From: Phoronis australis
Lineage: Eukaryota > Animalia > Phoronida
Length of the DNA stretch: 64,000 bases
NCBI GenBank assembly: GCA_002633005.1
Contig: NMRA01000304.1
Span: 213,200-277,199, forward strand
Direction of reading: 5' to 3'
Shown here: in pieces, positions 14,133 through 59,521 of the stretch
How positions within the stretch are numbered: position 1 is the stretch's first letter
Layout of the letters: each line of letters starts with the position of its first letter
Program-made: the position numbers and the translations under genes
The notes under the pieces: model-generated
Told to the model about the DNA's origin: nothing
Seen by the model: the letters and a program-made list of their open reading frames with translations, nothing else
The model's database searches: none

Positions 14133-15765
14133 CATGTTTTCCCAATTGCTCCGTCTGTCTTGGTGTTTCACTGGTTTATTATGGGCGTGTATATGGTTTT
14201 GAGATAGACATTGAGTAATTAAAACTTTGTCGTTTTAAAGTTGACATAACCTCAGCTGTTGGGTTTGTACTCAACTTGACAGGTATTCATAACAGTCTTA
14301 GTTAGTGTGTAGTGAATCATGCTCAAGTTCCCTCAGAGAGGAGTGTACAGTAGACCTGTGTGGAGGAGTTACCTTGAGGTCAATACACTCCTGTATTTGT
14401 TTTATTTACAGTGGTTCTGATTACTATACAGTTGTACAGTTCCGTTCTTTAACACAGGCTGTCTTGAATGCACTGACTCAGTCTGGTTCCAATCCCAGTC
14501 TCTACTTGTAGTATCTGAACTTGGCAATTGTGGCGGAGGTCATTTTTATGTGGCCTTATTTTTAGGCGCCAATTAGTCCAGTGCTTTCGCGCAATCAAGT
14601 GTGTAGGGTGGTTGCCTTATCTTTTTGAGAAGGATGCTTTCTGGACTTCTTCAAACAGCTTGGCATTTTATTGGTTGCTGTCAAGGCTGTGGTGGAATTA
14701 TCCATTTGAAATATTACCCCCTGTGAAAGACTTCACAATGTTGCTACTGCCTGAGGCCCGAAATGGGTGCATGTTAATAATTCGACACTGCTAGTGTTCT
14801 GAAGACACATAGGCACGCCGTCTTCTTGTTTCAGTTGGGAAAATTTTCCATCTTGGTCCAGTCTAAGTTTATCTCTGATTCGCTGGAGTTCTTGCTGATT
14901 ACATTGTTGGCAGTATTTCTCTGTTTGACAATTATTGAAGATTCNCATGTTTTCCCAATTCCTCCCTCTGTCTTGGTGTTTCATTATCACTGGTTTATTA
15001 TGGGCATGTATATGGTTTTGAGATAGACATTGAGTATTTAAAACTTTGTCGTTTTAAAGTTGACATAACCTCAGCTGTTGGGTTTGTACTCAACTTGACA
15101 GGTATTCATAACAGTCTCAGTTAGTGTGTAGTGAATCATGCTCAAGTTCCCTCAGAGAGGAGTGTACAGTAGACCTGTGTGGAGGAGTTACCTTGAGGTC
15201 AATACACTCCTGTATTTGTTTTATTTAAAGTGGTTCTGATTACTATACAGTTGTACAGTTCCGTTCTTTAACACAGGCTGTCTTGGGTGCACTGACTCAG
15301 TCTGTGGTTCCAATCCCAGTCTCTACTTGTAGTATCTGAACTTGGCAATTGTGGCGGAGGTCATTTTTATGTGGTCTTATTTTTAGGCGCCAATTAGTCC
15401 AGTGCTTGGGCACAATCAAGTGTGTAGGGTGGTTGCCTTATCTTTTTGAGAAGGATGCTTTCTGGACTTCTTCAAACAGCTTGGCATTTTATTGGTTGCT
15501 GTCAAGGCTGTGGTGGAATTATCCATTTGAAATATTACCCCCTGTGAAAGACTTCACAATGTTGCTACTGCCTGAGGCCCGAAATGGGTGCATGTTAATA
15601 ATTCGACACTGCTAGTGTTCTGAAGACACATAGGCACGCCGTCTTCTTGTTTCAGTTGGGAAAATTTTCCATCTTGGTCCAGTCTAAGTTTATCTCTGAT
15701 TCGCTGGAGTTCTTGCTGATTACATTGTTGGCAGTATTTCTCTGTTTGACAATTATTGAAGATTC
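14133..15765. repeat. About 815-bp near-identical direct duplication centred on an N (14945); probable artefact
   Basis: 14133-14944 repeated at 14946-15765; explains the twin 88-aa ORFs at 14528 and 15349. Confidence 0.9.
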
Positions 15766-16399
15766 GATTTTCAGTTCACCTTCATAGAGATGATTTTAGT
15801 TAAACTTTTTGTTTGAAATTCTAATCGATACATTACATTTCTTTGATTCCCAACTGGGCAGGTGTGTACCTAAATCCTTATCCATTTCACCCAAAAATAA
15901 TTGTCAAAATGGTACATATTCTTTTTTGCAAAATCTGATTACCTTGCTGCAAAATCAATGCCATTGGGAACTTTACCAAGTGTTAATACTTGTGCTATTT
16001 GGCACAAGTCAGCGTGTTGATATCAGGGATATTCCTAGACTGCAGCTTCGCGCTATTAGCGTATGAAAAAATAGAAAGGCGCAAGTGCATTGCAGCAGTG
16101 TGCCCCAGCCGGGTGCGTCTTTTTAAAACACAGCACTCTTCCAAAAACGCAAGGTTCTACTCAACTTACAGCCAGTCGGGTCAAACATGCCTCTCTTCTT
16201 ATTTAATTTGCCCTTGGGGTTTCTGTTTCATATGTTACCAATTTAATTGCAGTAAGTCTGCTGGACAAAATTTTTTAAAAGAGGCACACCTTTTTTATAA
16301 CTAGGTGCACCCATAGGGCACAGTTTCAAACCTGGTTTGTCCATCCCTGTAATATCATATAAGTAAGATTTATTGGTCTTCATGCATGTTCCATAGTTG

Positions 16400-26449: not shown

Positions 26450-27319
26450 ATAGATTATTACATGGCGAAGTCGTTATCCCCTGTTATTTAGAGCCCGAGT
26501 GGATTTTTGGAGAATTATCGCCCGAGGGGCATTAGCCCCGAGGGTGATAATTCTACAAAATCCACGAGGGTTCTAGATAAGGGGGATAACGACTGAGAAC
26601 ATGTAATAATCTATTTATACCACATACCGAACGAGAAACATTGCAATGAATCGATCTACCTTTCTCAACTCGCCTCGGCTTTGTAACTACTTTCTATGTC
26701 AGAGGCCCGTGGTCGGAGGTCATGACCTTTTAAGAAAAGCCGAGCTATTTTTGTCAAATAATGCTTATACTCAAAAGCAATTGAAAATTTAAACAAAATA
26801 AAAATAAAGTGAATCTATAAATTAAGGTTTAGCAACTCTTATAGCTTACTACACATTTTATCACGCTAAGCTTCGACCGGGAAAATATCGTCTGCTAACC
26901 ACTGGTAACAGAGTATAATGCTCAAGTTGAAGGATCCCGACAAATCCCGCATACCCGCATTCAAATTGGAGATCGGTGATTTACAAGTGAGAGAACACTT
27001 ATAGAGAAAATTTTCACTGAATTAAAATATCGTTTTTATGGAAATTATGCGTCTTATTTTTCCTAGCATATAAATGTCGGTACAATGCCCTTTGCTGAAC
27101 ATGCGATTGTTGCGCGTGCTCATTTAAGTATTCTATTTTCACGTTCGATGACGTCAGCCGTTGAGTGGTGTAGTGGTAAAGTTGGCGACTCACAACTCTT
27201 GAGGCCCGGGTTCGAATCCGGCCTCGGTTTCCGGCCAAAATGTTATTTCACCAGTGAGATAACTTTATGGGTTATTACACTGCTGTATCTTCCATTATTG
27301 GCTAATATTGTGGTATAAA
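26450..27319. mobile_element. Non-autonomous element with a 165-bp terminal hairpin and an internal tRNA-like segment
   Basis: Palindrome 26450-26614; tttataccac (26614) and gtggtataaa (27310) form an inverted pair; tRNA-like sequence at 27157-27229; CpG-richer than flanks. Confidence 0.65.
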
Positions 27320-27900
27320 GCTTAGTATATGAAAGTTTGGTATGAATACAACCGGCTATTTCAGAGGTATGATACTCTGACGTTATCCAACGTTGGACGT
27401 TTTTCTGGGTGCCAAACAATCTTAAGACATCCCAGTTAGCGCAGTGCCCTGCACACTCTTATTTAATGAGAGTATCTCCATGTTAGCAAGTGTAGACTTC
27501 TTATTAATATCAGTAAAGCATAGTTGGTTCTGAGCTCTCTGTTTTTTGTGTTTTTTTTTTTTTGAAAATCTTGCCAGNGAGATAACTTTATGGGTTATTA
27601 CACTGCTGTATCTTCCATTATTGGCTAATATTGTGGTATAAAGCTTAGTATATGAAAGTTTGGTATGAATACAACCGGCTATTTCAGAGGTATGATACTC
27701 TGACGTTATCCAACGTTGGACGTTTTTCTTGGGTGCCACACAATCTTAAGACTTCCCAGTTAGCGCAGTGCCCTGCACACTCTTATTTAATGAGAGTATC
27801 TCCATGTTAGCAAGTGAAGACTTCTTATTAATATCAGTAAAGCATAGTTGGTTCTGAGCTCTCTGTTTTTTGTGTTTTTTTTTTTTGAAAATCTTGCCAG
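27256..27900. repeat. About 322-bp near-identical direct duplication centred on an N (27578); probable artefact
   Basis: 27256-27577 repeated at 27579-27900. Confidence 0.9.
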
Positions 27901-28259
27901 CGGTGCAGTATTTTTTTAGTTACTCACTTTTTCAAACAAGAGGAGCAGAAATGATGCAGGATATGTTTTTTACTCATAGCTTGGCAAATCGTGGCGTTTC
28001 ATACCTGTGTGTTATTGTGCAGCTTTTCCAAAAAACATGACCCTGGTTGAAATTGGTGTGGGCTTCGCTAAGAGCTGGTCTCAAAATGCTTAATGTTCAA
28101 GTGTAAAAATCCATTTCAAGTTTACGTGGTTGGTGACAAATTTCGTAGACTTTGATCATTTATGTCTCAAGTAACAAGAGTTGATACAAAGTATTTTCTT
28201 TACAGAAAAGTTTGTATCTTTTCATCTGACTTGTTCTCAGATTGCCATCATTTAAATTA

Positions 28260-32164: not shown

Positions 32165-34804
32165 TTTGTAGAATCCAGCCCAAACATTGTGTAAAAAACG
32201 AGTGAACTGCTGCTATTGGCTATATCTCAGTTATGATGAAATGTTATTGTGTTCCTAATTTAATTATTAAACAGTTTGTTCATACCTAATTGAAGCAATT
32301 TCTGGTATCACTCCTATCTCACCCTGTCTAGTCTTCCCCTGGGAACAATTTCTAGTGCTGTAATTGCTTCCCAGGTATTAATTGCCACAGTTGTCATTCA
32401 GTAATTTCTTTGTGGCTAATGTACATTTGACATGTCATTGTGTCAGTCCTGCGATTACCTCTGTGACTATTTGCTTTAACATTAATGGCACAGCAGATCC
32501 AAGGTTGGAGAAATAATATATGGTGATGTTTGAAGTGAGGATTAAGGAAGGTTTATGGAGTCTGGGCCTGTGAAGTAACATGAAAAGACACCTCATGGAT
32601 GGGTATTGATTGGAAGGGCTGCACGTGTATGATCCCACAATGGACGGATCGACCTTACACCTTGCTTGACCAGCCAGCAGGCTTGATCGTCAGTGGCCAC
32701 AGCTGTCGAGAAGGATCATTGAAATAATGTGTTTCTATCATCAACTTGACACGGGCTACATGCTTTCTCCATCCATGTCTATTTGAGTACTAAGTTAATC
32801 TCCAAAGATGCCGCAGTTGCAATGAAATGTACTTTGGTGGCATGTTTAAAATGGACGTCAAATTCTGACTTAACGTTGTATGGGAAAGTTACTGAAGTTA
32901 CTGTTGGTTTAAAGTGGGAGGCGAAGTGCTGGGCACAGTTCAGAATAATCTTCTGGTTGCTGGTATAAAGCAGATGTTGAATCCGATTTAGACAGGAGTT
33001 AAATCCTGGTGACAGTTGAATTCATAGGAAAGTGTTCAAGCTGTTGCATTAAGGGCAGACATTGGTGGTCCCTTTGGTATAGGACAGAATTCTCTTTTGT
33101 GTTGCTGATGGAAAATAAGACAGCAATGATTGGCTGTCCCTTGTTGTGCTGTAAACTTGACTAGAGAATTGTTTGCGAATCGCCATACAGACAATGGAGC
33201 GTCATTCATAAATCATAAACTTGGATTACACTAGCTGATGTCGTGAGATTGATTTCTCTTCAAGCATATGTCACTCCTAGGTCTATAGGGTTTGGTCCGG
33301 GTAGCTGGCTAAAGTTGATGTCAGTATGAGAAAATGACCACATGTAATGGTCAGTCCATGTCGATGCCTCTGCTGCAGGATATGACCATCGGATAATCTT
33401 TGCTACTTTGAGGAGTATACCTAGTGTTTCTGATATGCATAGAAATCTGCTGCTGTGGTTTACATGTTGCTGTATTCTTACTTGTCTCCGGGAACATGTG
33501 TTAACACGCCTGTTGTGACCAGTTCGAGGACCAGTTGTCAAGATTGGGGACAAGCCGACACGCGCGCCTTCCTCTGTCAATTTCTGTCCAGAGATGATTG
33601 GTCTAAATTTGACTCTGCAGAAATTGCTCTTCAATTTTGAGAAGGTAGACTTAATGGAGTGTTTCGAAATTGTCTTGTGTTGTTAAAATGCCGTGATGCC
33701 TTTTCGTGCCTACTTGACTCGAAGCATCTACAGCTGCTCTGTTAAATCTTCGTGTTTACTGTGATGTTAGCTAATGTACAGTTGAAGGTAATCGTTCATA
33801 TCTACTGACACTTTGCAAAACATTGACATGTTGACGTTGCTAAGGCCTAATGCATACTACAAAAATTGGTCTGCTGCATTGTTGTCCTAAATTGCGCTAT
33901 TTTTGCTGTACCGTTTTCTGCTTACATCAGCTAATTTGTTTATGAAATCGCTTGCCTCGTTTCAGAATTTGGAAATGTTCTTAATATCCTGTATTTACCA
34001 ATATGCGTAGGGTGTCTTAGATAATCCGTTTTGGAATCTTGTAGCACAATGTTAAATAAATGTAGATGGCTGTGCACTGATGGTATGTCTGACATATGGT
34101 TAGTCTACAGCAGATAGGTGCCTGTTGTAGATAGCTTACTGCCATGTAGTCCCAGGTCCACTATAGGCTCATGTCAGGTGTTGAGGGTTCTAGCGAAAAT
34201 GTGGTGTAATTGAAATCTTCGGGGCTTATGCTCACCATCTGTGAAAATTCGTTTTTCGGCTGTTAAACCCCACCGCGAAAATGTATTCTAGTTTTCATTG
34301 AGATATGATTTATTCTTCTCTTATTTCGCACAAAGTAATTGCGAAGAAGGTAATAATGTTTTATTTTTAAAGGCTGGGTGTCATTCTGCAAGTAATAAAA
34401 ATTTACTTATTAAGTTGTTATTTAATGACCTCCGCATCATACAGTGAAGAAGAATTTTTTAACAATCATTTTTGTCGGTAAACTTACCAGGATAAAGTTC
34501 TGTGTTTTTACTGTGTTAATTCTGTGCTTAACAAGTGACAAATTGTATAATCCATAGTACAAGACTTCATTTGTAAAAAATCCCTGTAAAGCATAAAATG
34601 TATCAATGCTTTCCACTAAATTCATCACGCTATTAGTGGATGGTAAGTTGTTAATTACTATTTCCTGTCAAAGGACTTAAAACTAATCTTTGAGACCTGG
34701 CCTTGCACAAGTGCCTATTAATGGAATTTGCTGAAGTTGTTTGCCCCAGGCTTTGTTCAATAAAACTTAACTCTTGCTTAAACCAGTGCTTACTTTAATT
34801 GCAG

Positions 34805-34974
34805 GATCTTAAAGCTGAGATTGACGCCCACCAGAAACTGTTTGAATCACTCTCGTCAACTGGCTGGCAAATTGTTGCCAATGGTGAGCCATCAGAAACT
34901 GCTCAGACCAAACAGAGGTTAGAAGAGATGAACAAAAGGTGGCAGCACCTGGAGAGGACATCCGTGGAAATCAG
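34805..34974 (+). CDS. DMD: Dystrophin exon-56 homologue (DLKAEIDAHQKLFESL...RLEEMNKRWQHLERTSVEIR); absent from ORF track
   Basis: 170 nt, phase 0 to 2; resembles human DLQGEIEAH...RLDNMNFKW...IR; donor AG|gtgagg. Confidence 0.96.
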
Positions 34975-36769: not shown

Positions 36770-37004
36770 CTACACAATCCAAAAGTATTCAGACAAAATG
36801 AAATGGAATTCCACATCATGACGGCTGGGGGGAAGCCAAATTCGTTGTCACTGTAGTCTTCTCTCATGACAGAGAATGAAGGGGAATCAACAGGAAAGTT
36901 AGTATGGTGCCTAAGCCATTTTGGCGCCTGAATAGTTATTAACAGTCATTTGTGCTTTTAACAGAATTAGCTGCCAAGACGGGGAAAACCATGTTATTGT
37001 ACTG
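36770..37004 (+). mobile_element. MITE family A copy 3
   Basis: ccaaaagtattcagacaaaatga...gagaatgaagg...ctaagcca...aacagaattagc, colinear with 1-253. Confidence 0.75.
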
Positions 37005-40000
37005 TATGTCAAAAATATAAGTTTCAAATAGTGTTGTTCTTGGTTGGTAGAGGGTCTACCCTGTAGTGTGTTAGTATCTCATGGTTCTAACTTGTTTTTC
37101 GATCTTGAATTTGAATATTTTTGTCTGTTGCATAACAAAAAAAAAATTGAGTAAGTGCCCTTATTGAAGATATGAAATGGAATTGATTACGTAACTGAAT
37201 TTTGTCAGGTCTTCTCTGTGTCACATGATTCCCTTATAGGTGCATGGAGAACACTCAAATTATCCGAAAGTTTATTGTTTGGCCCCCAGATGGGAACAAT
37301 ATGTATTTAGATAAGTGTGAGATTTCCCTTGAAATAAATTTCTGTCAACATTTTCAACATCAAAAAGATCACTCCGAATAAACCACAGCAAGGAACTGAG
37401 TTTTTGTTTAACTGAGTCTAGTCAGACAATTAAACATCCTAACATTAATGACAACAGTCATCCTAACATTAATGAGAACAGTCCTTAATGATTGAATACA
37501 CTACGCTTATGCATTATTAAACAATTCTCCACATGATGTTGAACTTACATTAAGGTAGTTGATGGTGACTGATATCTCTCACCTTACGCTCCAATAAACC
37601 TCAAAAGATGGGTCCTTTTTCTTTTACACGCCAAATGATCAATTGATTATGGGTATATTTTAAAGCATATCGTTAGCAATGTAAAGCATCAAATAGATGC
37701 CAATAGATGTCCTCTCACTGACAGAAGCAGGGATTATAAGGTCTGTGATCACCAAATTTGGACAATTTTCAAAAATATCATACTGTCATTTTTCAAAGGC
37801 ATCTAACATTGTTGCAATTGCCCACAAGTTTTCAAAACTTTGATTTCAGTTGTGGCACTAATCGTGAACATGGAAAACCATTTAATTTGGTCTACATATG
37901 TTTCTTGGAAAATGTGATAAAATAAAAATTCACTTTTCGACCATATTCTGTCCTATTTTGATGAGACTTTTTTACGAAAACTTTCAATACTCTAATTAAG
38001 CAGCTTTGTAAAATCACTATACAAGTCTTCAGTCATTTAGCTTACAATATGACCGATGAGTGGAATTCTGTTTTGTCAAATTTATTCATAAAATTAAAGT
38101 GTAATGAAATTTAAGCCTATTATTAGCCTAGTTTGGACTTTATAGATGTCATAAGACAACATTTGGTTAAGTTTCCACTATTTGTAAATAAGTAATCAGC
38201 TTTTGAAAAATGGAAAATGATAATTTTGGCGGTTTTGTACAAAATAAGTGGAACATCCTACTCCGCTCTTCCAATAGGTTGGGAGCTCATTTGTAAGATA
38301 TTTGCCAGATTGAAGAAAAAATGTTTCAAGCCACGCACATAATGTAGCCATTCAGAGGAGGGTGAATAAGCTTTACCGGTATTTCAATTTAGGCATTATC
38401 TTAAAAACTTGGTGCTCTGGCACTGTTGAATTATCCAAGTAATCAAAAACAATCAAAACCTTCAGAAGCTGACACACGTCTTTAAAATGTAATTGAGTAT
38501 TTTTGGACAACGGTCTTAAAAATAGATTTTTCAGCTACAATTTCCATAAACCATCTGGCCTATAACACCTGGTATAGTTTTCTAATGGCTATCTTGTATG
38601 TAACTGCTATTGGCATGTTTGGGTGAATAGTTGAAGTTGGGGTTGTTGGTCTGTTATGATTTGGTCTGTGTTATGCCGTTGGAACCATGATCATTGCTAT
38701 GCTGAGTTGTTTTTGGCAAGCAAATGTGACTCAGAAATGGGTCCTGTTCACTGAGATATTCAGGCTTCTGGATGACATGGTGATTTTTTTTATTTTCGTA
38801 TTGAAGTGTTTGTATTTGGTAAATGTACTTGTCATAATTTATTTTTATTAAATCGGTATGGTTTCCACTCTGCAGGAACATTAAACTTAGTTTGAAGCAC
38901 ATATTTGAGGCTAGGGTGGTAACGTTCATGCATAGCGTGAGACTATAGTGAAAATGAGACTTGGTAGAATCAATGTTATGATGACCAGCACGATGACAGA
39001 TTAAGTTATGGTATATTATTCTTGACACAATACTCCTGAGAAAATGGCCTCTTTTCACTGCGAAAACTGAGTGTCGTGGCTCAAAAATGTCAATACTGTC
39101 ATAAAAGTAACTGTATTTAGATCCACCCATTAATACCTGCATGCCAGATTTTGTTCTAATCTGTGACCTCCACATTGCAATATATATTCGGTGCTGTCGT
39201 GGAATAAAAGTTTTGCCATTGTTGCTCACTTAACCAGTTCATCTTGTGACCGATGACCTGCTATCCCTAGAGATCAAAATTCATTTCTTTGGAACTAAAC
39301 TGCATATAAAAAGAGTTTGGTATCATGTACTGAATTCCGTAGGCTATCTCGTCTATGAAGGATGTCAAAAGCGAGATATGTGCAGTTCGTTATGGTAACA
39401 GAATTGCCAAGTACGATATTTAATATGCAGTAACAGACCTTGTATCATACACCTGTGCTACACTGTCACATTAAATATTCTCTTCCAGGTAATGTATTCA
39501 GAAATGTAGCATCTTACCCCGCTCTGGTCAGTGTTGTGTCACACGGAAGTTTTATGTGTCTGGTCACACCGAGTTCATTTATTAGTCGGAAAAATTAACT
39601 GTAGGTTTTATTATGCTACAGCGACAGTTCCACCTGTACAGCACGCCATCTGGTGGGCTAATAGTATTTTAGTTTGACATTTTTTGTGTAAAAATGATAC
39701 CTTGTCATAAAATTGCTTTTAAAATTTGAGTGTTTGCAGCTGCGCAGAATGCCTTGGCTGTCATTTTGTGCAAAGTTGGTGAAGAAACACAGCAAAAACA
39801 ACTAACAAATTCATTTATTTATTTACCTGGTTTGACGTGTAAACTGTCCTTAAACAATATTTGGTAGACATTAATTACCATTGTCAAGGCCTTTGAAAAA
39901 GAGAGACAATGTGAAAATATTCCATTTTGTAAGTTGTGATTGATTAAATGTGAGTTAAAAAATGTTGCCTAATACATTTAAGTGTAATTTTTGCCATTTT

Positions 40001-42038
40001 GCAGTAATTGGATCTATATAGCAAACTGCAGTCAGAGGTTTTCTCAACCTGCTCATTGAGGATTCCATAACCTAAGGGGGTGAATACCTTGATAAAAATA
40101 CCAACTGTTGACTATTTTTTCTCACCGATGTAATGTTCTTTGGCATCACCATGGATTATCGTTTCATCCAAATTTCGGTACATCTGTTAGGTGTGCTTTC
40201 AAAAACTCTTGTCTTTCTTTGGCTTTTCTTTCGTTTTATAAAGACTCGGGTCTCTCTGTAGGATAGCACTTTAATTGGTGATTTTATTTTGATTGTCAGT
40301 TAATAAATGAAGGTTTGGTTTTGCATGAGGATAATAGAGTGGGTGTTACGTATGTATTGTAGTTTTCCTAATGAGAGTCCAGTTATCAGTGGCTGTAAAA
40401 AAATTGAATATTTTATTTGAGTTATATATAATAATATGCAGCTTTATGTTACTAATCATGCTAGTTATGAAAGAAATTTTTTCCTAAACTTTGTTCTTTT
40501 TGAGAAATTCAACGGTTGAATTTCACTTGTTGGTCATATCGTGTGTTAAATTGAATGGTGTTTGTCACATGTTTCATGCAGTACTTGAGTATTTGTGTTG
40601 CTGGAGATATAAAACATCCTGGCATATTTAATCGTTTTTCATTGAGGGTCTGCATTGAATGTCAGGGAACCTTGTTTAAGTCCAGTTCATCTGTTTTATA
40701 AATATAAGTTCACTGCCCATAGGCGTTTCCTTGATGTTGGTATTCATAACTGGTTAAACAGTGCTCAAGCAGGGTAAGTTATTGACCATACGCTCTCTGA
40801 TCCTGAATAGTTTACATTTAGTAATTCCTGTGATGAGCTGAGTACCAAATGCTCATCAGAACAGGAAAAATTTTTATCCAAAATAGTCTTGACCCAATGA
40901 TCAACTTGACCCGTTGGTCGGGAATTATTTATAAATCATCTGTCAGCAGTTGACGTTGATAAATGTGATAGTTATGCAAGTGCAATCGATGAATCTCTTG
41001 TACTTAATACCATGCATTCTGAATCTTAAGTAGTTTGAGTATCTGAATTTTCGGAGACATTTCGCAATTATTCTGTGGTTACCGTGTAGGATTCTGTTTA
41101 TCGTCAGCATCTTATATCAGCCAGGTTGAGTAATTTACAAAAACTTCCTCGCTCAAATGTGAAAGTGTTTACAACACAGTGATTCAACAACTTATCAGTC
41201 AAACCAGCTGTCACTTTGAGCCCGCCCTAATTCCTAATCGGGTCGGTTACCTGGTAAGAACTTCTAGCCATGAATCTTCTGTGGCTGACATCTTAGTCTG
41301 CTGTATGATTTGCGAAATCTTGAATTTGGTGTGTGGGCTGGATGCTGGAGAATTGGAAATAACCCTACTGAAGTGGCTCGGCAGAACTGATATAGGTAGT
41401 AAGACGGGAAGTCTGCCAAGAGCTCGGAGCAAACCTGACTTGTGGTCCTAGGCAGTGATGGCCATGTTTTCCTTACCACCATGAGGGCTCTCTGTGTGTT
41501 TTTTATTGTTGCTGGAATCAGATAGACAGATATCGTTATCTGCTAACACAGCAGAAAGCATCTCGATTTAACCTCTTCAAAGAAATTGAAAGCCAATTCT
41601 GAAACAATGGAATACAGTGACATAGACTAGGAAGTCATCTCTAGTGTGTCGGTTTATCTGATTTCTTTGCTAAAAAGCATTACAACAGACATGTGATCCG
41701 TTTATCTCAACTTGTTAATTAAGTCCGTTTTCTCATGTATGAGGTCATGAGACTGTCTTGTTGTTTTCAAAAACAAGTCGAGCGAAAGGTTCTGTGGAGG
41801 CATTTTGACAAAGACGACCACGGAAGCTGGATGTGCTAATTGTGTTGACTTCGGAAGTAGATGTGTAACACTTGTAGACTTGATATCGAATTAACTCGCC
41901 ACAGCTTTAACAAGGGAATACGCTTTATTCGATTAACTCCATTGCCAGCCTGCTTTACTCACCGTCCTCATCGGATTACGTATTTATGACATTTATTGAT
42001 ATTTGCCCGAGTCGGCTTTAGTTGTATCCCCAACAATA

Positions 42039-44215
42039 ATGAAGTGTGCTTTGGTTGAGATCCCAATGCACAACGGAGAATACTTCCACCCATTGAAAAA
42101 CGGTTATCTACAGGTCCCGATGGAGGAGCGGCATAAGTACCCAGTCTCACCTTGGAATCGTAGGAAGGTGAGCTTTGCCGACGAGGTAGCGTCGAATCCA
42201 GTCAGGCAAAAAAAGAAAGACAGCATATTGAAGCGTACGTCATACGACAGCGGTTCAGCCACGAGCTCGGAATCCGATTCAGACAAGAGTTCCATTGACA
42301 GTGGACATAGCAGTCGCATCAGTTGTACAAGCTCTACACATAGCATCAATGGTAATGGTGGGATATTAAAGAGTCGACTGACAGTAGATCAGGTGAATGA
42401 TCACCTGAGGAACCAGGTGTTCTTTGACGACTTGAGAAAGAGAATATCAGAAAAGGTGACCTTAAATGATGATTTGCCCGATGAGTTACCTGAAAGTACT
42501 TTGCACACATGTCAGAAGTCTGTCCGAAGTCATGGTTGTTGTGATTTTGATCATAAACAGCTGAAGGACTCAGTAAAGTCTAGTACAAGACCACAAGTCA
42601 GGCAGGGCTCTGAGCCTCTTTTGTTAATGAATACATCAAGTGCTGTTGATGGTAATTCATTTCATGGTGCATCAAACTGTGACTCCTATGTTCAAACAAT
42701 TGACAAGCAGAAAATTGACAGGTCAAGTTTATACCTACCGCTGCGGACATCATCATCATCCCTCAAACGGCTGTCTGCACCAGCAGGGCTTGTTGATCTG
42801 TCAGTTAATGATATTTACAACGAGAGCTTAGAGTTTGCTATCAAAAACGAGACAGGTTTGAAAAACACACCAAGAGTTTCAACCCCTTTTCCAAAATCCA
42901 CAGAAATTCAGTGGGAAACATTAGATGACAGATGGCAGTGCCAAGACACCATCAGTAAGTTGGCAAAAGACTGGACAAATTGTCGTAGGAAATCGGTGAC
43001 AGGGTATTTGCAGGAAGCCGACTTGATGGACAAAATGGTGGATAGTTCGTCTCCAAGTTCCATCCTAGAAAGACCTGAAAGTGTCTTGAGTACTGAGGAG
43101 TATGACAATGTAAAACCACTTGGCAGTTACACAACCAATGAGAATAAAAAGTCTCGTAATTGCAATCCTGTGATGAAAAATGACTGTCGAAGTGATAGGC
43201 TTACATCTTCATGCGGTAAAAATGAGCTGAGTGAGGCTGAGCGGCAGGCCAGCTATAATACTATACTAGAATCTATTAGTGAGAATGAATTCTGTGGGGA
43301 CAGAATGCAATTAGGGAAAAGTAATAGCAATGACAAATCTAATGTTGGAAAACTAGGCAATGCTCACAATCTTGGAACATCTGGCATGCTGAATGTAGAT
43401 GGTACAAATGGCATTAAACAAGACTGTAGTGACTCCAGTAGACATTATAATCATTCATATGGGTTACCTCTGTTCTCTGTGCAATGCTTAACTGAAAGAG
43501 CCACTGAATCATTTGATGGTGATGGTAGGATGGGACAAACGGCTGCGTGTCAACCAAGGTGGGTAGCTGAGGATGGGTGCTGTCAAAGTTCCCCTCCACT
43601 TAACACATCAAGTGGTGGAGTATTGTACAAACAAACACAAGATGGAGTTCCCATTATCCATCAACCTGGCCCATTACAGCCTGCAAACAATGGTGGGTCA
43701 CAGTCTGGTGGCAATCAAGCCAATGGAATTCAGGACAATGTTTTGAAAGATGGTGAAGCCCATGACAGGGTGGATAATGATATCAACAACCTGTCTGGTG
43801 AAGTTGTGTCCAGTCCTCCATCAGCATTACATCCTACCACAACCACCACCAACGAAAGGTGTATGGATGAGAGGCTGACCATTGAGGACGTTTTGGAAAA
43901 GCTTGCAGTATTTTCTCCCGGCGTGGGCGATAACGGTTTGAGTTTTGCCCTGCCAGGTGTTCCTGTGGGCATGGAGTGTGGAAGCGAAAGTTCTGTAATG
44001 ATTAGTGATCATCACAGTGTTCCGTCCATTGGTGGCAGTGACTGTGTTCCATCTATTAATCATGGTGGAAATATAGAAGAGATTCATCGTCACTGCAATG
44101 ATAGCGGTATTGATGAGCCTATGGGGAACGGCAGGGATGAAGGCTCATCCGCTGATCAATGGAACCGATTGATTAACATGTTGAGTGGATTGGCCGACTC
44201 AGTGGGAAGACCACC
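42039..44215 (+). CDS. DMD: Giant candidate alternative first exon (about 726 aa, Ser/Asp/Asn-rich, likely disordered), splices in frame to 46895
   Basis: Only long ORF in the window; first ATG at 42039 (ataATG) after an in-frame TGA at 41997; ends CCA CC|gtaagc, phase 2, matching the exon at 46895; no transposon or enzyme motifs recognised. Confidence 0.8.
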
Positions 44216-46894
44216 GTAAGCATTCCTATCCTCCTCTATCATATACATAATGTTTCAGACTTGTACATTTTTAAATTTGTCTGCTGTTGGCTGTTCTGTC
44301 ACTTTCTCTTTGATTACCTCTTAGTAATTTCTTATTTGTAATTTTTGTGTTCGTGGGTACTTAAGTTTGATGGTGTAAAGCCTTAGGATAAGGCTGTGCT
44401 ACTCAACAAAAATGTGTAACTCAGGGCAAAACCATTCTCATTCATGTGTTGCTCATTTCATTGTCATTACATGGGATTTTGGTTCATGTCTCATGTAATA
44501 ATCATCATTGCTGCCAACGTACATAGGGAAGTTGTATTGTTGCGATTATTTCCGTACTTGAGTGTCATTTTTTCCTGGTGGTTTTGAGTCATCACTTGAC
44601 CTTTATATCAGATCTGATTTCAATCTTTCACCAGAATCAACTGCAGTGTTCCAAAGGTAACATTTTAGGAAATAATTTTACACATTGAGTGAACACTTAC
44701 TGTTGTAAACAAGCTTGTTCAACACCATCTTCCTCAATTTCTGTGTGCTGTGCTAAATAAAATGATACCAAATTGTGTGCAATGGGTTTCTTTCCAAATC
44801 CAACCCAATCCTTGTCTTTTTCTAAAGTAATTTTATGGCACTAGAAATGTTTTTGTGTGTGTAAAACCAGGAAGTTGTATGTATAGAAGATTAAATTTCT
44901 TACCTCCTCTGTGACTATTCACCAATGAATTCACTACACACTATATTTAAATGATCAATCAACAAAATGTTCAATTTTTTTGTATAATAAAACCTGGTCC
45001 ACTTTTTGATTGGCTAATAACAGGAGCTTCACTTGTATCTAAAAAACAGTGGCTAACCACAGAGCTTCAAAGTTTGATGGGATCACCTGAGTAGTTCAAT
45101 ATTCCAAAAAATGGTTCCCACAAGAAATCCATTGCATAAGCTCAAAAGAATACTTAACCCTGTTTTGGGGATTTCAATCAATCTTCATTCTGTCATATAC
45201 TAATGCACCATTGGCGGTCCACTTAAGTGATAAAAGCAGTTTTTATTTAAAAACTGGTATTTTCGTTTAGGATATTTGGGTATGGTTCTTGACAGGTGGT
45301 CTTTCCCTACAGCTGTCACAGGTAACTCGCCTAAAGCACACGTCACGCTTGCACATTTAGCGGACTTTGCAAAGAATTTTCAACTTTACTCGAAACATCT
45401 GAGGGTTGTTGGGGGTTACAGAGCATTATTTTGTTTCAGAGAACTCAGGATGGGAACGTTGTCTGTATCTGTAATAGGCCAGAACCGGGAGGTTTCATGC
45501 ACTTTTAACAGTATTATGTACATGAAGATGTACAGAAACAGACAAACATTGTATTGAACGAGCATAGGTGGGAAGATGGTTTCTAATGTTACACTGTATG
45601 TAAAAATAAACACGACTGCAGACTAAACGAATAATATGGATGGGACTGGAGGTCTATTGTCCTTGTCTTCTCATACCTTGTATTTTCCTGCTAATGCTAT
45701 CAGCTAGCATGTTTGAGTGGACCACAGGGTTAAACAAACAGTCCACCTATCAAAACATTGGTTGTTTTTTGTTTAACGAGAATCAGCTGCTAATTAGTTG
45801 GAATCTCTTGACTATGGAGTAGCCCACAACTAATTAGTTACTTTTTGCTTTAAGAAATCTAGTGTCTATCCAATTCTGTATTCTGGTCTTCTTATTTTAT
45901 AGTTTATGCTCGTTCTTATTTTTGCGAAAGTTTTTTTTTTGATTATTCTGAAAAAATGGTCTTTGTGGTTCCTGGTGGATTTTGTGTTTGGATTCTAGGG
46001 ATTTCATTTCCTGATACGTATTGATAACGGTCACAGTTTAAAATCAGTGAAGCAACCCTTTGCCTTAAGAAAATCTTAATAAGTCATACAATAGATGTCT
46101 CTCGGTATGTCTAAGAGAGAGTTGGAGGGAGAGACAGACAGAGAGAGAGAGGGAGACAGAATTTTCAAGTGGCTCCAAAGCAACTCTGTGGAACATAAGT
46201 GGCAATTAATTATTGATCTCAATTAAGGAATCTTGATTAGCAGCCAATTGAAGTGTCATTATCTTTAAGTTACGGCAATAACTATATAGAGTGATTGACT
46301 AACTTCAAACCTTGGTAAATCACTTGAATGCCAAATTTAAGTGTTATAAATTTAGTTATAAATTCTTGACCGATGATTTTTTATTAATTGTGAAAATAGG
46401 TGTATCCTCCTTTTTATAAGATTACTTTCATTCTTCCAAAATATGTAAACCTCTGAGACTCAAACAGTTACTTTCATTAATATAAAAGTTACACGAAGCA
46501 GCGGACATTTCCTTCTATATGCCAGTGATCTTTTATCGTGTATTGCCAGGAAGGGGGCGAGGCCTGTGGTTCACACCAAAAACTTAACCGATGGACCTCT
46601 TTCAAAAGGCTTTGATTAGATTGAGAAGAGGCTCTAGTTTCTGGCTTAACACAGAGCTCACACAGAGTCTGTGTTATATGTTAGGAACAAGAAAATGAGA
46701 TAAAAGCTTGTTGTTTATTTCTCTTTGAGAAGTGTTTGCAGAAACAACACCTTTCAGTCATGGTTGTTAACAATGAGGCATTATGGGACTTAACAGTCTT
46801 TGCTGTTCATTGGATTCTAAAGATTCTGGAATGTTCTTTGCTGAAGTTTCACTAGGACATCTGCATGAACTAGAAATGTTTATTTCTCTTCTAG

Positions 46895-47051
46895 GAGTCG
46901 TTTAGAGCAGAATAGTGATCAGTGGATTGAGTTACAAAACAGACTGTGTGAGCTCATTCAGTGGACCACTGCCAAGGAAGAGGAACTGTTCAGACAACAG
47001 CCAATAGGGGGCGATCTGACAGCCATCAGGAAACAGAATAGTGATGTGTTG
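46895..47051 (+). CDS. DMD: Dystrophin exon-57 homologue (SRLEQNSDQWIELQNRLCELIQW...QQPIGGDLTAIRKQN); absent from ORF track
   Basis: 157 nt, phase 2 to 0, same as human exon 57; PIGGD motif. Confidence 0.97.
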
Positions 47052-47885: not shown

Positions 47886-47985
47886 GCGCTCAAAGCTGAA
47901 CTTGAAGAGAAAAGACCAGTTGTGGAACAACAGCTACAATTGGGCCAGGCTTACATTGAGGGAAGAAGGAAAGAAGGCTCTGAAG
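47886..47985 (+). CDS. DMD: Dystrophin exon-58 homologue (ALKAELEEKRPVVEQQLQLGQAYIEGRRKEGSE)
   Basis: tttatag acceptor, donor AAG|gtcagt; 100 nt, phase 0 to 1. Confidence 0.92.
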
Positions 47986-50284: not shown

Positions 50285-50430
50285 GTATCAATGTTGAAGA
50301 CGAAATGGAGGTTGAGGCGAGAAAAATAGTGCAAGACATTTGTAGCAACGTGAGTCAGCTTAATCAACTGTGGGCAGACGTCAACAAAAACACTGGCGAC
50401 TGGCAAAACAAGATTGATGACACGATGAAG
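50285..50430 (+). CDS. DMD: Dystrophin exon, 5' half of human exon 59 (INVEDEMEVEARKIVQ...LNQLW...DWQNKIDDTMK)
   Basis: ttttcag acceptor, donor AAG|gtgagt; 146 nt, phase 1 to 0; DWQxKID motif. Confidence 0.92.
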
Positions 50431-51670: not shown

Positions 51671-51805
51671 AAAATGCGCCAATTTCACCAAGGCATGGAG
51701 GATGTTCTGGAGAAACTGCACAATGCTGAAAGTAGAAAGCAGAAGTGGAAAACAGTTGGCGATATTATTCTGGATAATCTTCAGACAGAAATTGAGCAAA
51801 CAAAG
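51671..51805 (+). CDS. DMD: Dystrophin exon, 3' half of human exon 59 (KMRQFHQGME...KWKTVGDIILDNLQTEIEQTK)
   Basis: tttgcag and AAG|gtaagt sites; 135 nt, phase 0 to 0; WxxVGD motif of the last repeat. Confidence 0.96.
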
Positions 51806-51970: not shown

Positions 51971-52397
51971 TCCTTCCAAAAAGACCTGGTCCCTGTGCAG
52001 GAACAGGTGGACCTGGTCAACGATTCCGCCGCCCAGTTCACTCTGATGGACATTCAGCTGTCTCCGGCCAATCTTGACCGGGTGGAGGACATCAACACAC
52101 GGTGGAAGGCTCTGCGCACGTCCGTCGACGACCGCCTACGCCATCTTCAGGAGGCTCTTCGCGAGTATGGCCCTGCATCCCAACACTACTTGGCGGGCTC
52201 AGTCGAGCCACCGTGGGAGCGCTCCGTGGGCGGCAACAAGGTGCCGTATTACATGAATCACCAGAAGCAGACAACACATTGGGACCACCCGCAGATGACG
52301 CAACTGCTCAAGTCAATACTCTCCGACCTGAACGATGTCAGGTTCTCGGCGTATCGCACTGCCATGAAGGTCAGGGCAGTGCAGAAGAAACTGAGTT
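51971..52397 (+). CDS. DMD: Dystrophin exon equivalent to human exons 60-64 (last repeat, hinge 4, WW domain, start of EF-hand region)
   Basis: 427 nt, phase 0 to 1; [47 protein letters not shown]. Confidence 0.98.
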
Positions 52398-52656: not shown

Positions 52657-52861
52657 TGGATTTGGTGAGTCTGAACAACGCCATCGCTGTCTTCAACCAG
52701 CACAATCTTGAGGGACAGAACGACCGACTAATGGATGTTCCAGAGATTGTTGCCTGCCTTTCGGCCTTGTTTCGCATAGTTGAAGACGACCACCCCAACT
52801 TCATCAACGCTCCACTGTGTATAGATCTTACCCTCAACTGGCTTCTGAATGTTTATGACAT
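52657..52861 (+). CDS. DMD: Dystrophin exon-65 homologue, EF-hand region (...PLCIDLTLNWLLNVYD)
   Basis: ttctag and |gtaagt sites; 205 nt, phase 1 to 2. Confidence 0.97.
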
Positions 52862-53841
52862 GTAAGTACACTGTAAGACCACATACGGTTTTCCTTCCAT
52901 GACTGCTACTTCTGTTAACAGCAAAAATGACTGGTAATAACCATAAAGGCAGCAAAATTCTAATTACATAACGGCTCAGCCACCTTTCTTGTTAATTCTT
53001 CTTTATTCTGATCGTGAATTCACCTTCTGCCGACCCATCATAACCCGGGAACTCCGGCTCGTTTTGTCTGTATTCTTTTGACTTGTACTGTGGATGAAAT
53101 TCAGTGGACTGACTAATGGTTTTTGTTTCCTGGTGGTTTTAGCTGATATCTTTATTAAATGCATAAACACAACTTGAGAAATTAATGAAATTGTTCTTGA
53201 AATTCCTAAAAATACAGGCATATTCTAAGACGGAACTCTCTCCACAATAATGTTATTTTATGTAACTTGAATAGTCGTAAAATTTAGATATTGCTGTCAG
53301 CTAACTTAATTGATTTACTTGTAACAAAATATTAGGCTCGAAGTAAGGAGGGTGTCATTGTCACGTGTTCCAAACTGAATCTCTTCTCGTAATTTAGCCA
53401 AAAAATGTGACGCACAACTGGAGTTTGATTTTGTCAGATTTCTCAGCAATTATTATAGACTGAGGAAATTTTACTGAGTGTGTAATCAATCTGCACAGTT
53501 TGTACTGTACATCAGTAAAAAAAAAATAACACTTGGAAGATTGTTAAAAGCCTTTGAAAATATAGGAAAGTGACAGTTTTTGCAATGATTGCTTTCGTGC
53601 AAAATAGCTGAAAATTACTGCTGTGAAAACCTGGAAATTTACCGCTCAATATAGCTCTCATCTTTGTGCCTAATGTGTCCAGGTCAAAGTAGGACGAAAG
53701 TTGACTGACAGATTAGGTGTAATATGCACTGTAGTCTGTAATGAATGTGATCGATCATTCTTACAACTCTGGCTGATCACAAATGTTGTCCGCAGCTACC
53801 ATCTGATTAGCCTCAATTGCCCATTGGACTTTAATTTGTAG

Positions 53842-53927
53842 GTGTCGGAGTGGTCAGATACGGGTACTCTCCTTTAAAGTTGGCGTGGTCTGTTTATGTA
53901 TGGCTCACCTGGAAGATAAATATAGAT
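53842..53927 (+). CDS. DMD: Dystrophin exon-66 homologue ([28 protein letters not shown])
   Basis: 86 nt, phase 2 to 1, same as human exon 66. Confidence 0.97.
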
Positions 53928-55241
53928 GTAAGTTTGTGTTTTAATGACATGCTTTCTTATAATTCCACTTGTTTAGAAAGTGGAAATAAAGTGACATCAC
54001 TAGAGTAGGAAATTTTTGTAAATTGCAGTTCTGGATGTGTTTGCGTTTTTTTATTGGCAATTCATAAAAAATCATTTTGATACCGATCAGTTGTGGCGGC
54101 CATTTTGTAGGTGCAGTACCTGAAATTAAAAATTATCTTGAAAATTTTGGCAGTGTTTGGTCTATCTGTTCTGTGCAATGAACAAGATGTAACTGAATTG
54201 GGTTCAGTTATTTGTAATAAACAGAAGTGGACTCAGGATGCAGTGACATCTACAGATCCTGAAATCATGGAGATCTGTCCTGGTGTAAGGTCTTGCCACT
54301 GTAACCAACATGCATACCCTTGTCACACTGCAAAAACGGCGTTCAGACATAAACCAGTGGCGAGAGGTCACTTTGACATATGTTGCCCATTACGAGAATA
54401 ATGAAGTTGCACTCCCATAGGGAGTGATAAATAAATATTTCTGAATATTTGGAGACATAACGCGCTGTACAGGGCCTGTATTGCTGAGTAGTCTGCACTT
54501 GTAACTCATAGCCATTATCTATATGACGAATGTAACTGTTTGGTGAAAATGACTAAGTAAACCCAACAATAATTACGAGTCTTCAAAATCAGGGCATCAG
54601 TCGTCCACTGCAGATACTGACCTGTAGCCTAGTAGAAATTAAAAATGGAGTCAGAAACTGGCCTCGTGTAGACCTGCTTGCAACTGACCTCTATTACCGC
54701 CATTCTTACCATCTTTATACTCCCGTCCAGCTTTTTGTCAAAATTCTCCGACCAGATTGCCCAATTCATCCTAGTTTTGGGTACGCCTTCTACACAAATA
54801 TTCCTCTTGTTGCCACTATCAATAATTCACCAGTAATTATTAAAAGTGAAATAATTTTGCTCTGCAAAATTCTCTTCAATTTTATATGTAGTCAGTCAAA
54901 TCATTTGGTCCAATTTGCTCAGTTTCATTGAAATGATGAAATCTATGATGACCAACTGACCACAGGATGTGTTTACCACGTTTATCGAGTGCAATTTTGT
55001 TGATTAATTTTGGTTTTATTTTACCAAATGAGAAGCTACCGACTGTGTAGCTCAGTTTGTGGAACAGTTAGACCGTTGATTGAAATAGGAAAATGACTCT
55101 GCAGGTACTTGAAGAGATTGTTAAATAGTTGTACTTGAGAAATTGAGTAACTTGTGCATGCAGTGTCACTTTGGCAAACAAACATTTGTAATTGAAAAAT
55201 TGACTTATTGCAAAATAATTGTAGCAGTTGTAGATGCTTAA

Positions 55242-55629
55242 GGGTGTGTAGGACCCTAGTATGATGGCCAGTTTTGGAACATCGTTCCTTGGAAATACCG
55301 ATCAGATTCGTATGAAACTCAATACAATGCTTTATACACTGTTTTTGAAAAGGCTGCTGGGAATTTAAAATGTCCCACTTTTGTGTGAGGGTCTATCAAA
55401 AATGTGACTGATGATTTTCATGAAAAAAGCTGAAGTTCTTCGTTGCTAAATTTTCCTAAATCCATGGTAACGATACTCAATTAATGGCAGATCAATAAAA
55501 AGTTGCAAATCAAATGCTACTGGCCTTCTCAGTTCTTTCAGAAAATACATAATTTTATTAAACATCTATAGTTTTGTAGATATTTGGTTAAAAATTTATG
55601 CAGACTTGTCTATTAGGTCCCACGTACCG
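55242..55629. mobile_element. Possible TTAA-flanked non-autonomous DNA transposon remnant
   Basis: ttaa-gggtgtgtaggacc ... ggtcccacgtaccg-ttag imperfect inverted ends. Confidence 0.45.
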
Positions 55630-56012
55630 TTAGCCAAGTGTGCCTGAGTCAATAGGTCAGTGAGTGAGTCCTAAGTTCTCTTGGAGACCTGTTTTCCTAT
55701 TGTATCAATTACCTTTTACTGTGCTTAAAATTCGATTGGTTGAAATTGATAAAAATAAAGTCAAACTCGCTCTAAATTGACCTGAAAAGACAGGACCATA
55801 GTGAAACCTAATGTTTTGCTTGTGTGCTTATTTCAATAGTATGAACGGATTGTATTACCAAAGTCACATGCAGTACTGAAGTCGCCAATGTTCTACCTGT
55901 CGCGTAATTTTTTAAGACTATTTGAAGTCTTACAATACCCAGGACCTTCGAACTGCTTTCAAGTTCAACGTTAGGATTTGAATTCTCAATGCCATTATTT
56001 ATCTATTTCCAG

Positions 56013-56170
56013 ACCTGTTCCGCCTTATTGCCGATGCTCAAGGATTTGCCGACCAAAGAAAGCTAGGTTTACTTCTCCATGACTGTGTTCTCATTCCACG
56101 ACAACTGGGCGAGGTGGCCGCTTTCGGAGGAACTAATATTGAGCCTAGTGTCCGCAGCTGTTTTGAGAAG
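56013..56170 (+). CDS. DMD: Dystrophin exon-67 homologue ([52 protein letters not shown])
   Basis: 158 nt, phase 1 to 0, same as human exon 67. Confidence 0.98.
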
Positions 56171-56369
56171 GTGAGAGAGTAATTAGACTCGCTGAGATAG
56201 GTCAGCAATAGGCAAGACACTATTCTAAAATATTTTTTGACCAGACAGTGACTTTCTAGTTGTCTGCAGTTTATCATTTGTTTCATTGTTATGTAATTTG
56301 CACAGTACCTTGTTTAAATACAATTTTGCCTCAATGATAACCTATGATAATGATAATAATAAAAATGTC

Positions 56370-56520
56370 TGGTTGGATATCTGCATTCTGCCAGTGGAGC
56401 TGATGGATCAGTGAACTAGAGCATATGGAGGGGTTGCAGAAGGTCGTAGGTTTGAACCCCGGTCAAGACAGAAATCTTTTCAGACTTGCAATTACTTGGG
56501 CTTGGGTGTGACCTCATTTG
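56370..56520 (+). mobile_element. tRNA-related interspersed repeat family C, plus-strand copy
   Basis: Degenerate B-box ggtttgaaccc; similar to 16400-16525. Confidence 0.55.
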
Positions 56521-57394
56521 GCTCTTCAGAGAATCTTGTCTATGTAATAAACATTATGGATGATAACCATGATAATCATAATGATAGTAGTGATAACATG
56601 CTTCTTATATCATGGTTATGTTTCTGAGTGTAGTTGGTTTGAAATTGCTTTGCTTAGTGAAACGGTGAAGTGGTCTGATAATGTGTTCTCAGTCGTTAAA
56701 ATACTTTGTAAACACAAGTCTCTTGTTAGCAGTGTCTTTTTTAATTTCATTATTGGTAACGTAGTTATATTTTATGCTAATATTAAAAATGTCAGGGTAT
56801 TATTCTTTCTATGATATTGGTAATGACAACTGATATCTATTAAAATAATTATGTAGTCATAATAACTGTTAACACCATTAATACTAGTACGCATATGTGG
56901 ACCAATCCTCGGGGCAATATTAGGTTATGTGAACCTCTGCAGAGCAATGCTGCTAATGCTCTCTCAAGGTCCATATAACTTGACATCCCCTTGGAATCTG
57001 TCTATATTTGTTTCATTATACGTCCATTGATGTTTCTTTCCTCCAATTTCTTTATCTATTAGATTGGCATTTTCCCTGCTTTGTTGTTCTGCCATTGTCT
57101 GATCACTGACTTTGTTTACTGGGTTAGGGTTTCAAGGTTTTTGCAGCCTTTAATTGGCCAGTTCATTCACGAGTAGTAACTTCTTTTGTCTGAGTTGCTT
57201 GAAGAGCGATATTCCATAGCTAACGTGGCAACATTCACATCGCAATGGATGTCACCGTACAGTGTTTTAGCGTATTTGAGTACAGTAATATTTGTAGCTG
57301 TATATTTGTGCTGTCTAGTTCTAGGTCATAGGTAGCACATTGTAAAACTTCTAAAAATGAAAGTTTAAGAATGGGAAACAATTTTTGCTTTCAG

Positions 57395-57561
57395 GCTAAC
57401 AGTGGAAATGAAATCCAGGCCAAGCACTTCATTGACTGGATGAAGTTGGAGCCTCAGTCGATGGTGTGGTTACCAGTCATGCATCGGTACGCAGCCTCAG
57501 AGACGGCCAAGCATCAAGCCAAGTGCAATATTTGTAAAGTATTCCCCATCGTCGGGCTCAG
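57395..57561 (+). CDS. DMD: Dystrophin exon-68 homologue ([27 protein letters not shown]; start of ZZ)
   Basis: 167 nt, phase 0 to 2, same as human exon 68. Confidence 0.98.
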
Positions 57562-57605
57562 GTAAAGTACTTGGAATGGCTTGTTTTTAGTTATGACTCT
57601 TAAGC

Positions 57606-57759
57606 TTATGTATGACTTATGACTTATGTATGACTTATGTATGACTTATGACTTATGTATGACTTATGACTTATGTCTGACTTATGACTTATGTATGACT
57701 TATGTATGACTTATGACTTATGTATGACTTATGACTTATGTATGACTTTATTGACTTAT
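57606..57759. repeat. Compound minisatellite of ttatgac and ttatgtatgac units
   Basis: Direct reading: interleaved 7-bp and 11-bp units. Confidence 0.95.
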
Positions 57760-58568
57760 CTGTGTAATTAGCCAAATATCTACAAAGTTATAGATTTCAA
57801 TCCTGCCTCAAAAGAGTATATTTTTAAAGTAGTTATAAACCTGTAGAATTTTGATTTTTGACTTCTCAGTTTTTACTAATCTGTCTTTAATTGGGTCATT
57901 TTACTGTATTTTTAATGAAATTTGCCTGAAATGAAAACTACATTGATAACAGAACAACATGTAAATAACATGACCAAATTTTGTTCTAAATTATCATTTC
58001 GTTGTACGTAACTTTTGAGTTTTATCACAGATATAGCAAAAGCTCTGTTTTTGATATCCTCTCTCGTGCAGCTGCAACATTTTATGCAAAAATTCTTAGG
58101 AGTGTTGTGGAGAGCATTGCATACAGTTGAGTATCTGAATGTTTCATGTGAACTAATCGGCCATTTGTTAGATCTAATGTTACCAAGTTAGCCTAATTTG
58201 GACATTTTTCTGGGGTCCTTTAGTCTAATTTTGCTCCTTCGTTAGTTGAAGAAAACTTTTGTATTATAATGATGTGTCGTGTATAACTTTTTAATTAAAT
58301 GGCACTACTAAGTTGTGAAAATAACAATAATGACAACGAAAATATTTATCTAAAATAATTATAGCAATTTATAACTAGTATTTCATTGATACAAATTATT
58401 TAGAGCTACATTCGTTTTTGGTGCAGGTGTCCCCAGAATTAGTTTATAGTAATAATGATACTGATAACAATAATAATTATGATAATAATGATGAGAATTT
58501 GTGGTAGTAAAGATAGCAAAAATGAAAGCAATTATAAAAATGATAAGCATGCATATCTCTTTCTGCAG

Positions 58569-58680
58569 GTATCGCAGTCTGCGTCACTTCAACTTCAATC
58601 TATGCCAGAACTGTTTCCTGTCCGGTCGAACATGTAAAGGTCACAAATTGACCCACCCCATGCAAGAGTACTGCACAACA
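58569..58680 (+). CDS. DMD: Dystrophin exon-69 homologue, ZZ domain ([37 protein letters not shown])
   Basis: 112 nt, phase 2 to 0, same as human exon 69. Confidence 0.98.
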
Positions 58681-59384
58681 GTGAGTATTGATTGGATGGC
58701 ACTGTGACTCGTTTCACAGCACTTCCTAATCAATAAACGCCGACGACATGTCGATTTATTGACTGCAGGTTGTTGTCCTGCCGTGATTTGATTAACTCGC
58801 TGCTATGAGCAATTCTTGTTCAATTACTCAAGCAGTTACTGAGTTCATTGTCTGACAAACCCAAGGTCGTGTTTTTCCTTTAGATGAATTGAAGATTTCA
58901 TGGTTCCGTATTAAAGAACGTTGTGTCTTCCTGTTCAATGTTTTTTGTCAATTGAACCTGAAATTGACAAGAATTTATCAAAAACTATTAATAATAACTT
59001 TCCAAGATGTTACGTTTTAATTTAAAAATTTTTTGTATTTTATTTGTATTATTTTTAACTCTTATTGTTGATATAATTATAATCATAACTTTTTATTATT
59101 ATTTGGGTTATTTTTGTTATTACTGTTATGATTGTAGAATTTTTCCGATTACAATCAGTTCTCGAAGTGATTTTGAAGGCAACATAGCCCATGTTACCAT
59201 ACTTCGCCTCGTTTAACTTAGAATATACCTCACTGAATGCAGGTATTCATGAAGTGATTGCCAATAGAACCATTCCGTTAGTTCCCAGTGCTGAAGTCAC
59301 TGCTCCGGAAAAAATTAAATTAGTGGAATAGCATTTTGATATCAAAATCAATAACACTCGCAATGCACTCCTGAATACTTCCAG

Positions 59385-59521
59385 ACAACCTCAGGAGAAG
59401 ACGTGCGAGATTTCGGTCGAGTCTTCAAAAACAAGTTCAAATCAAAACGCTACTTTAAGAAGCACCCTCGCCTTGGCTATCTACCTGTACAAAGTGTGCT
59501 GGAGGGAGACAGCATTGAAAG
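59385..59521 (+). CDS. DMD: Dystrophin exon-70 homologue ([45 protein letters not shown])
   Basis: 137 nt, phase 0 to 2, same as human exon 70. Confidence 0.98.

Follow-up and report, generated by a model that had tools for sequence, protein, structure and literature searches.

The window analyzed here, a 64,000-nt stretch of Phoronis australis DNA (contig NMRA01000304.1, positions 213,200 to 277,199 of the forward strand), carries part of a dystrophin gene whose spectrin, WW, EF-hand, and ZZ exons all lie on the + strand of the window and whose C-terminal exons, coiled coil included, extend beyond it. We refer to its exons partly by human exon numbers, a correspondence that we assume. RNA evidence came from three stranded runs that belong to a single study and from a contig set of a second study, the latter taken to be RNA by guess. 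The upstream exon at 34799..34974, the exon-56 equivalent (5′ edge approximate), has a splice joint in 4/4 runs and a Pfam Spectrin match, and the exon-57 equivalent at 46895..47051 starts spectrin repeat 23 and is the acceptor for both isoforms described below. Read-supported exons at 47886-47985, 50285-50430, 51671-51805, and 51971-52397 encode repeats 23-24, WW, and the EF-hand start, and the dystroglycan-binding region continues through EF-hand and ZZ exons at 52657..59519, with the first joint placed by reads and the others by homology. The single 427-base exon at 51971-52397 spans the end of repeat 24, WW, and the start of the EF-hand, likely through intron loss; the same stretch presumably comprises several exons in vertebrates. 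In a tree, the window's dystrophin nested in none of the clades sampled (mollusc, echinoderm, arthropod, and chordate), with cuttlefish and chiton nearest by path.

Between the exon-56 and exon-57 equivalents, stranded RNA depth and a splice joint define a further + strand exon at 41134..44215, which encodes a long unique head. Sense-strand coverage runs from about 41.1-41.8 kb to 44215 in all four runs, although the 5′ limit is uncertain, with reads starting in the 41134-41250 bin in one run and contigs at 41348 and 41811. A GT donor stands right after 44215, and the GT..AG joint 44215→46895 was found in 4/4 runs (contig depth 26; 2, 2, and 1 reads), as was the head-skipping joint 34974→46895 of the long isoform (depth 31.8; 10, 8, and 3 reads); 5 of 26 raw-read joints into the 46895 exon originate from the head exon. 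Because none of the 4 RNA runs contained a joint leading into the head exon, and because upstream intron bins mostly lacked RNA depth outside repeats, we identify it as an alternative first exon of dystrophin. An internal cassette exon was ruled out, as no joint enters the exon and depth runs unbroken upstream. The short form would be made from an internal promoter; RNA depth climbs near 41.8 kb in two runs, where there may be a second start site. The splice phase is 2 at both donors, placing the head in frame with the 46895 exon, and the resulting isoform retains two spectrin repeats together with WW, EF-hand, and ZZ. RNA joints and homology together support its being a genuine dystrophin that keeps the WW-EF-ZZ region.

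The coding part, 42039..44215 on the + strand, encodes a Ser-rich head of 725 residues from the first ATG, which has A at -3. It lies in an ORF of 739 codons (42000-44219), compared with a longest frame of 174 codons in 1,000 shuffles, and after splicing the frame opened by ATG 42039 meets no stop over 1,047 codons, the last of them at the WW exon's end. GC content is 44% in the head against 35-36% in the flanking introns, and the within-species variants listed in the head include neither an indel nor a stop. The 739-codon frame is not due to chance. In the 5′ leader (41134-42038) there are 15 upstream ATGs if counting begins at 41134 and 3 if it begins at 41811, together with a stop-to-stop frame of 105 codons at 41134-41451. 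The upstream ATGs could in principle block the head, so that the exon would be mostly untranslated leader and the protein would start downstream, as in sea urchin SuDp98, which reportedly has an internal start; a pN/pS of about 1.1 across most of the head points the same way. The length of the frame, its phase with the next exon, the raised GC, and the intact variants argue against such a leader, which we regard as very improbable.

No Pfam family matched the head, and its single-sequence structure model has a few helices and low confidence along its whole length (pLDDT under 50, mean 35.6), which model failure would also give; the head is likely disordered. Its Ser content is 13.5%, with six basophilic sites. 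The last predicted helix (44151-44195) is the most confident stretch of that model and has a DQW..L pattern like that of the next exon's start. It may replace the helix that repeat 22 lacks; its alignment with the next exon at the DNA level was not convincing.

Short dystrophins with internal first exons have been described in other animals. Dp116, G-utrophin, SuDp98, and fly Dp205 begin in intron 55 (PMC1790709), and Dp205 combines a unique head with two spectrin repeats, WW, ZZ, and a coiled coil (PMC2840664). With Dp205 and the arthropod Dp205-like, Dp186, and Dp117 forms, the Phoronis isoform shares an internal first exon and a long unique N terminus that replaces the actin-binding domain; with Dp116, G-utrophin, DRP2, and SuDp98, it shares an internal promoter, repeats 23-24, and the dystroglycan-binding end, but those forms differ in having short or non-coding first exons in intron 55 (PMC1790709). 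In the arthropod and sea urchin isoforms that we retrieved, the junction is at the DLQxEIE exon (exon 56). By contrast, the Phoronis head exon comes after the exon-56 equivalent, outside intron 55, and is spliced not onto exon 56 but onto the exon-57 equivalent, so that arthropod Dp205-like heads join one exon upstream of its junction. Compared with four Dp205-like proteins (P0031, P0013, P0062, and P0133), the head gave no BLASTP match at E 0.1. Judged by sequence, the head isoform is Dp205-like in architecture, yet is not a Dp205 orthologue.

A first-pass annotation of the window had reported a cluster of motifs resembling docking sites for protein phosphatase 1 (PP1) at the start of the giant exon. 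We confirmed RRKVSFADE (42159-42185), SILK, and GILK at the positions given, all in the 739-codon frame and spanning 71 residues; the cluster does stand at the start of the coding part, 40-110 residues into the 725-residue head, but not at the start of the exon, which the 5′ leader occupies. RRKVSF (42159..42176, + strand; ORF residues 54-59) matches the extended RVxF consensus [KR][KR][ACHKMNQRSTV]V[CHKNQRST][FW] as used in PMC4794898, and the secondary (S/G)IL(K/R) pattern is matched both by SILK (42222..42233, + strand; residues 75-78), 15 residues past the RVxF Phe, and by GILK (42360..42371, + strand; residues 121-124), 61 residues past it. The RVxF Ser (Ser58, RKVS) and the SILK Ser (Ser75, KKDS) both lie in basophilic [RK][RK]xS contexts, and SILK is followed by KRTS. 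Two DSGxx[ST] pattern matches (42246-42263 and 42297-42314, + strand) sit between SILK and GILK; we take these to resemble beta-TrCP phosphodegrons. A further DSGIDE occurs near the exon end (44100-44117), and DSGYRS is also present in two hymenopteran Dp205-like heads (P0062 and P0133).

Such motifs might have arisen by chance in a fast-evolving disordered head, in which case the isoform, like Dp116 or Dp205, would be no more than a dystroglycan scaffold without actin binding. To gauge this, we shuffled the head, in a test that was post hoc, as the motif itself had been chosen, and that ignores the clustering of such words in natural proteins. A loose RVxF appeared in 30% of 20,000 shuffles and alone means little. 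Among 100,000 shuffles, the extended RVxF appeared in 292, one SILK-type motif in 4,889, and two in 119; the extended RVxF with one SILK within 80 residues appeared in 4, and with two SILK-type motifs in 0. When residues 14-150 only were shuffled, the full set was found in 0/200,000 and a loose RVxF with two SILK-type motifs in 2. The stringent combination argues against chance, whereas loose pairs speak for it: 8/205 fetched dystrophin-family proteins have a loose RVxF and a SILK-type motif no more than 80 residues apart, none of the 8 with an extended RVxF, and these pairs likely fall inside spectrin repeats. The RVxF and SILK pair was absent from the five arthropod N-terminal regions scanned and, because arthropod Dp205-like heads lack it, is no general trait of short dystrophins; for Dp116, G-utrophin, DRP2, and SuDp98, the available text of PMC1790709 reports no PP1 motif.

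The order of the motifs had been raised as a caveat, on the grounds that SILK normally lies N-terminal to RVxF. The objection proved weak, as PTG, RRP1B, and yeast Rif1 have SILK-type motifs after RVxF. In crystal structures, the SILK pocket is bound from the C-terminal side by PTG (RVVF 84-87, SALK 124-127) and by RRP1B (KVTF 683-686, GVLK 724-727) (PMC9582199, PMC9813921), and budding yeast Rif1 carries KSVAF at 114, SILR at 146, and GILR at 222, in a module regulated by kinase sites nearby (PMC3937515). Inhibitor-3, checked as a further C-terminal case, has its SILK N-terminal instead (PMC10066265). Because C-terminal SILK-type precedents exist, motif order is no strong objection. The head differs from each of them: PTG/PPP1R3C and RRP1B have 36-37-residue linkers, make further contacts, and use non-canonical SALK and GVLK motifs, compared with gaps of 15 and 61 residues in the head, which has no carbohydrate-binding or other domain in common with them; Rif1 matches the head in motif order (RVxF-SILR-GILR) but is an unrelated nuclear protein with a 27-residue gap. 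The 15-residue gap between RVxF and SILK is shorter than in PTG, RRP1B, or Rif1.

Searches for orthologous heads covered proteins, dystrophins fetched by their body sequence, and metagenomes, and were blind to short motifs within diverged flanks. In a word search of longer proteins, none of 7,972 candidates scored as a homologue of the head, phmmer over 1.84 billion representatives gave 0 matches, and a metagenome scan gave 224 pattern matches, none of them confirmed. Dystrophins fetched via the dystrophin body (30/30 matches, the best 120 of 573, plus cluster members) included no verified positional orthologue. Seven screened proteins matched exon 57 without an exon-56 match, and four were inspected, with fish P0056, P0065, and P0096 left out. 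As positional orthologues we rejected P0007, apparently two gene models fused, P0062, in which exon 56 is present with an insert, and P0135, which has rod sequence; the moth gene model P0024, whose 103-residue lead contains loose RVxF words but lacks SILK, was put aside as unverified. The absence of a homologue from all searches run is what chance motifs would predict.

Within-species variation gives a further view of the head. Among the 23 variants listed in its coding part, counts that are tiny and mostly from one contig set, residues 14-152 (139 codons, bounded by the contig end) hold 3 silent and 0 replacement variants, whereas residues 153-738 hold 4 silent and 16 replacement variants, with a pN/pS of about 1.1 (Fisher p = 0.02 for the contrast). 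Two of the silent variants, at 42173 and 42185, fall inside RRKVSFADE. The contrast weakly favors constraint where the motifs lie and little of it elsewhere in the head. The apparent lack of constraint over most of the head is consistent with motifs arising by chance; that every variant in the motif-bearing part is silent speaks against it.

The first-pass annotation had proposed modeling the complex with the PP1 catalytic subunit. We did so with a fungal stand-in, a PP1 from metagenome locus L028 whose similarity to solved PP1 chains reaches E about 1e-190 and which has the SILK-pocket residues identified for PTG. It was folded together with residues 46-128 of the head, and no alignment was used. 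The model passed its controls, scoring 0.85 in three runs against 0.01 for the best of 3 controls, with a run-to-run contact agreement of at least 51% and a partner pLDDT of at least 44. In calibration, which excludes peptides and disordered chains, the score mark was reached by 51/78 solved and 2/108 mismatched microbial pairs, and by 71/105 solved and 2/126 unrelated eukaryotic pairs. KVSF is placed in the RVxF groove of the model, where R55-A60 touch PP1 residues 168-169, 242-243, 261, and 288-293. The other confident partner residues, K73-R79, surround SILK, with I76 touching PP1 55, 86, and 116; the modeled SILK contacts, which include PP1 P50, L53, E54, L55, E56, E116, F119, D166, and E167, correspond to the pocket named for PTG. 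GILK was absent from the confident contacts. The prediction of PP1 docking is backed by motif statistics and by the complex model, in which RVxF and the first SILK are placed and GILK is not.

The pass may reflect memory, because many RVxF/SILK complexes have already been solved, and the model shows likeness and geometric feasibility rather than binding. The predicted occupation of both pockets at once nonetheless counts against chance motifs, and, with the shuffles and the silent variants, leads us to consider a coincidental cluster in a plain scaffold unlikely. A PDB sequence search with the motif segment gave 0 matches at E 10, and in two queries of the ESM Atlas a known PP1 regulator, Gip1 of yeast, came second each time, at 0.78 and 0.75; these values are under the level reached by shuffled proteins, which makes Gip1 no more than a lead. 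Giant-virus PP1-like proteins were too divergent to serve as PP1 stand-ins; nine viral-collection contigs (L001-L009), five of them labelled giant-virus MAGs, encode such divergent PP1-like phosphatases.

These observations suggest a PP1-docking dystrophin isoform, which is likely lineage-specific. An intronic first exon before repeat 23 gives, through an in-frame splice, a short dystrophin with a 725-residue head, predicted to dock PP1 via RRKVSF and the first SILK, with GILK as a possible spare or alternative SILK site. The dystrophin-family WW-EF-ZZ region binds beta-dystroglycan and would keep the isoform there, while roughly 600 probably disordered residues of the head might act as a tether that presents PP1. 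Basophilic kinases could phosphorylate Ser58 (RKVS) and Ser75 (KKDS) and so release PP1; PP1 is reported to be released by a phosphorylated RVxF Ser in GM and GL, or SILK Ser in KNL1. Because the contexts of Ser58 and Ser75 match these release sites, kinase control may reasonably be inferred, and PP1 might, as the first-pass annotation had envisaged, be recruited to the dystroglycan/syntrophin complex under such control. Given the motif statistics and the model, with targeting deduced from family knowledge, we lean slightly toward the short dystrophin being a PP1-targeting subunit at the dystroglycan complex.

The phosphatase could instead act mainly on the head itself, for example at the DSGxx[ST] sites, setting isoform turnover and delivering none of its activity to partners. 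Two such motifs lie inside the docking cluster, the Ser content and basophilic sites of the head would offer substrates, and the docking evidence from the complex model fits equally well; set against this, matches to the degron consensus are no great rarity where Ser is abundant, two or more appearing in 520/100,000 head shuffles. We think this self-directed role improbable. Docking of PP1 in either role, targeting or self-regulation of the head, appears quite probable from sequence and model. The fuller account of a targeting subunit, in which the lineage made a kinase-switched PP1 regulatory subunit from dystrophin, using another intron than Dp116 and Dp205 and nesting phosphodegron-like sites within the docking module, is more tentative, and we put it a little short of an even chance.

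Neither component is new by itself: short dystrophins that bear unique heads are known, and so are RVxF/SILK modules. The literature searched, in which most subscription journals were absent, yielded no report of a dystrophin docking PP1. In mouse muscle, PP1beta was the top non-sarcoglycan co-immunoprecipitate of sarcoglycans, with a direct link unsupported on follow-up (PMC8783446), and a review assigns no biochemical partner to the unique heads of invertebrate short dystrophins in its available text (PMC2840664). Direct PP1 docking, if true, would provide one such head with a function that can be tested, hard-wire a phosphatase to the dystroglycan complex, and add a natural canonical SILK just 15 residues after RVxF. 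Its importance is tempered by the head's apparent restriction to a single lineage and by the familiarity of its two parts, short dystrophins and PP1 motifs.

Elsewhere in the window, near-identical duplicated stretches with N between the copies occur at 5345-6027, 14519-15787, and 27014-27919, and are likely assembly duplications at gaps. Four short intronic repeats, at about 36780-36960, 38190-38230, 45200-45450, and 52900-52990, gather many both-strand reads with loose ends and likely represent a dispersed element.
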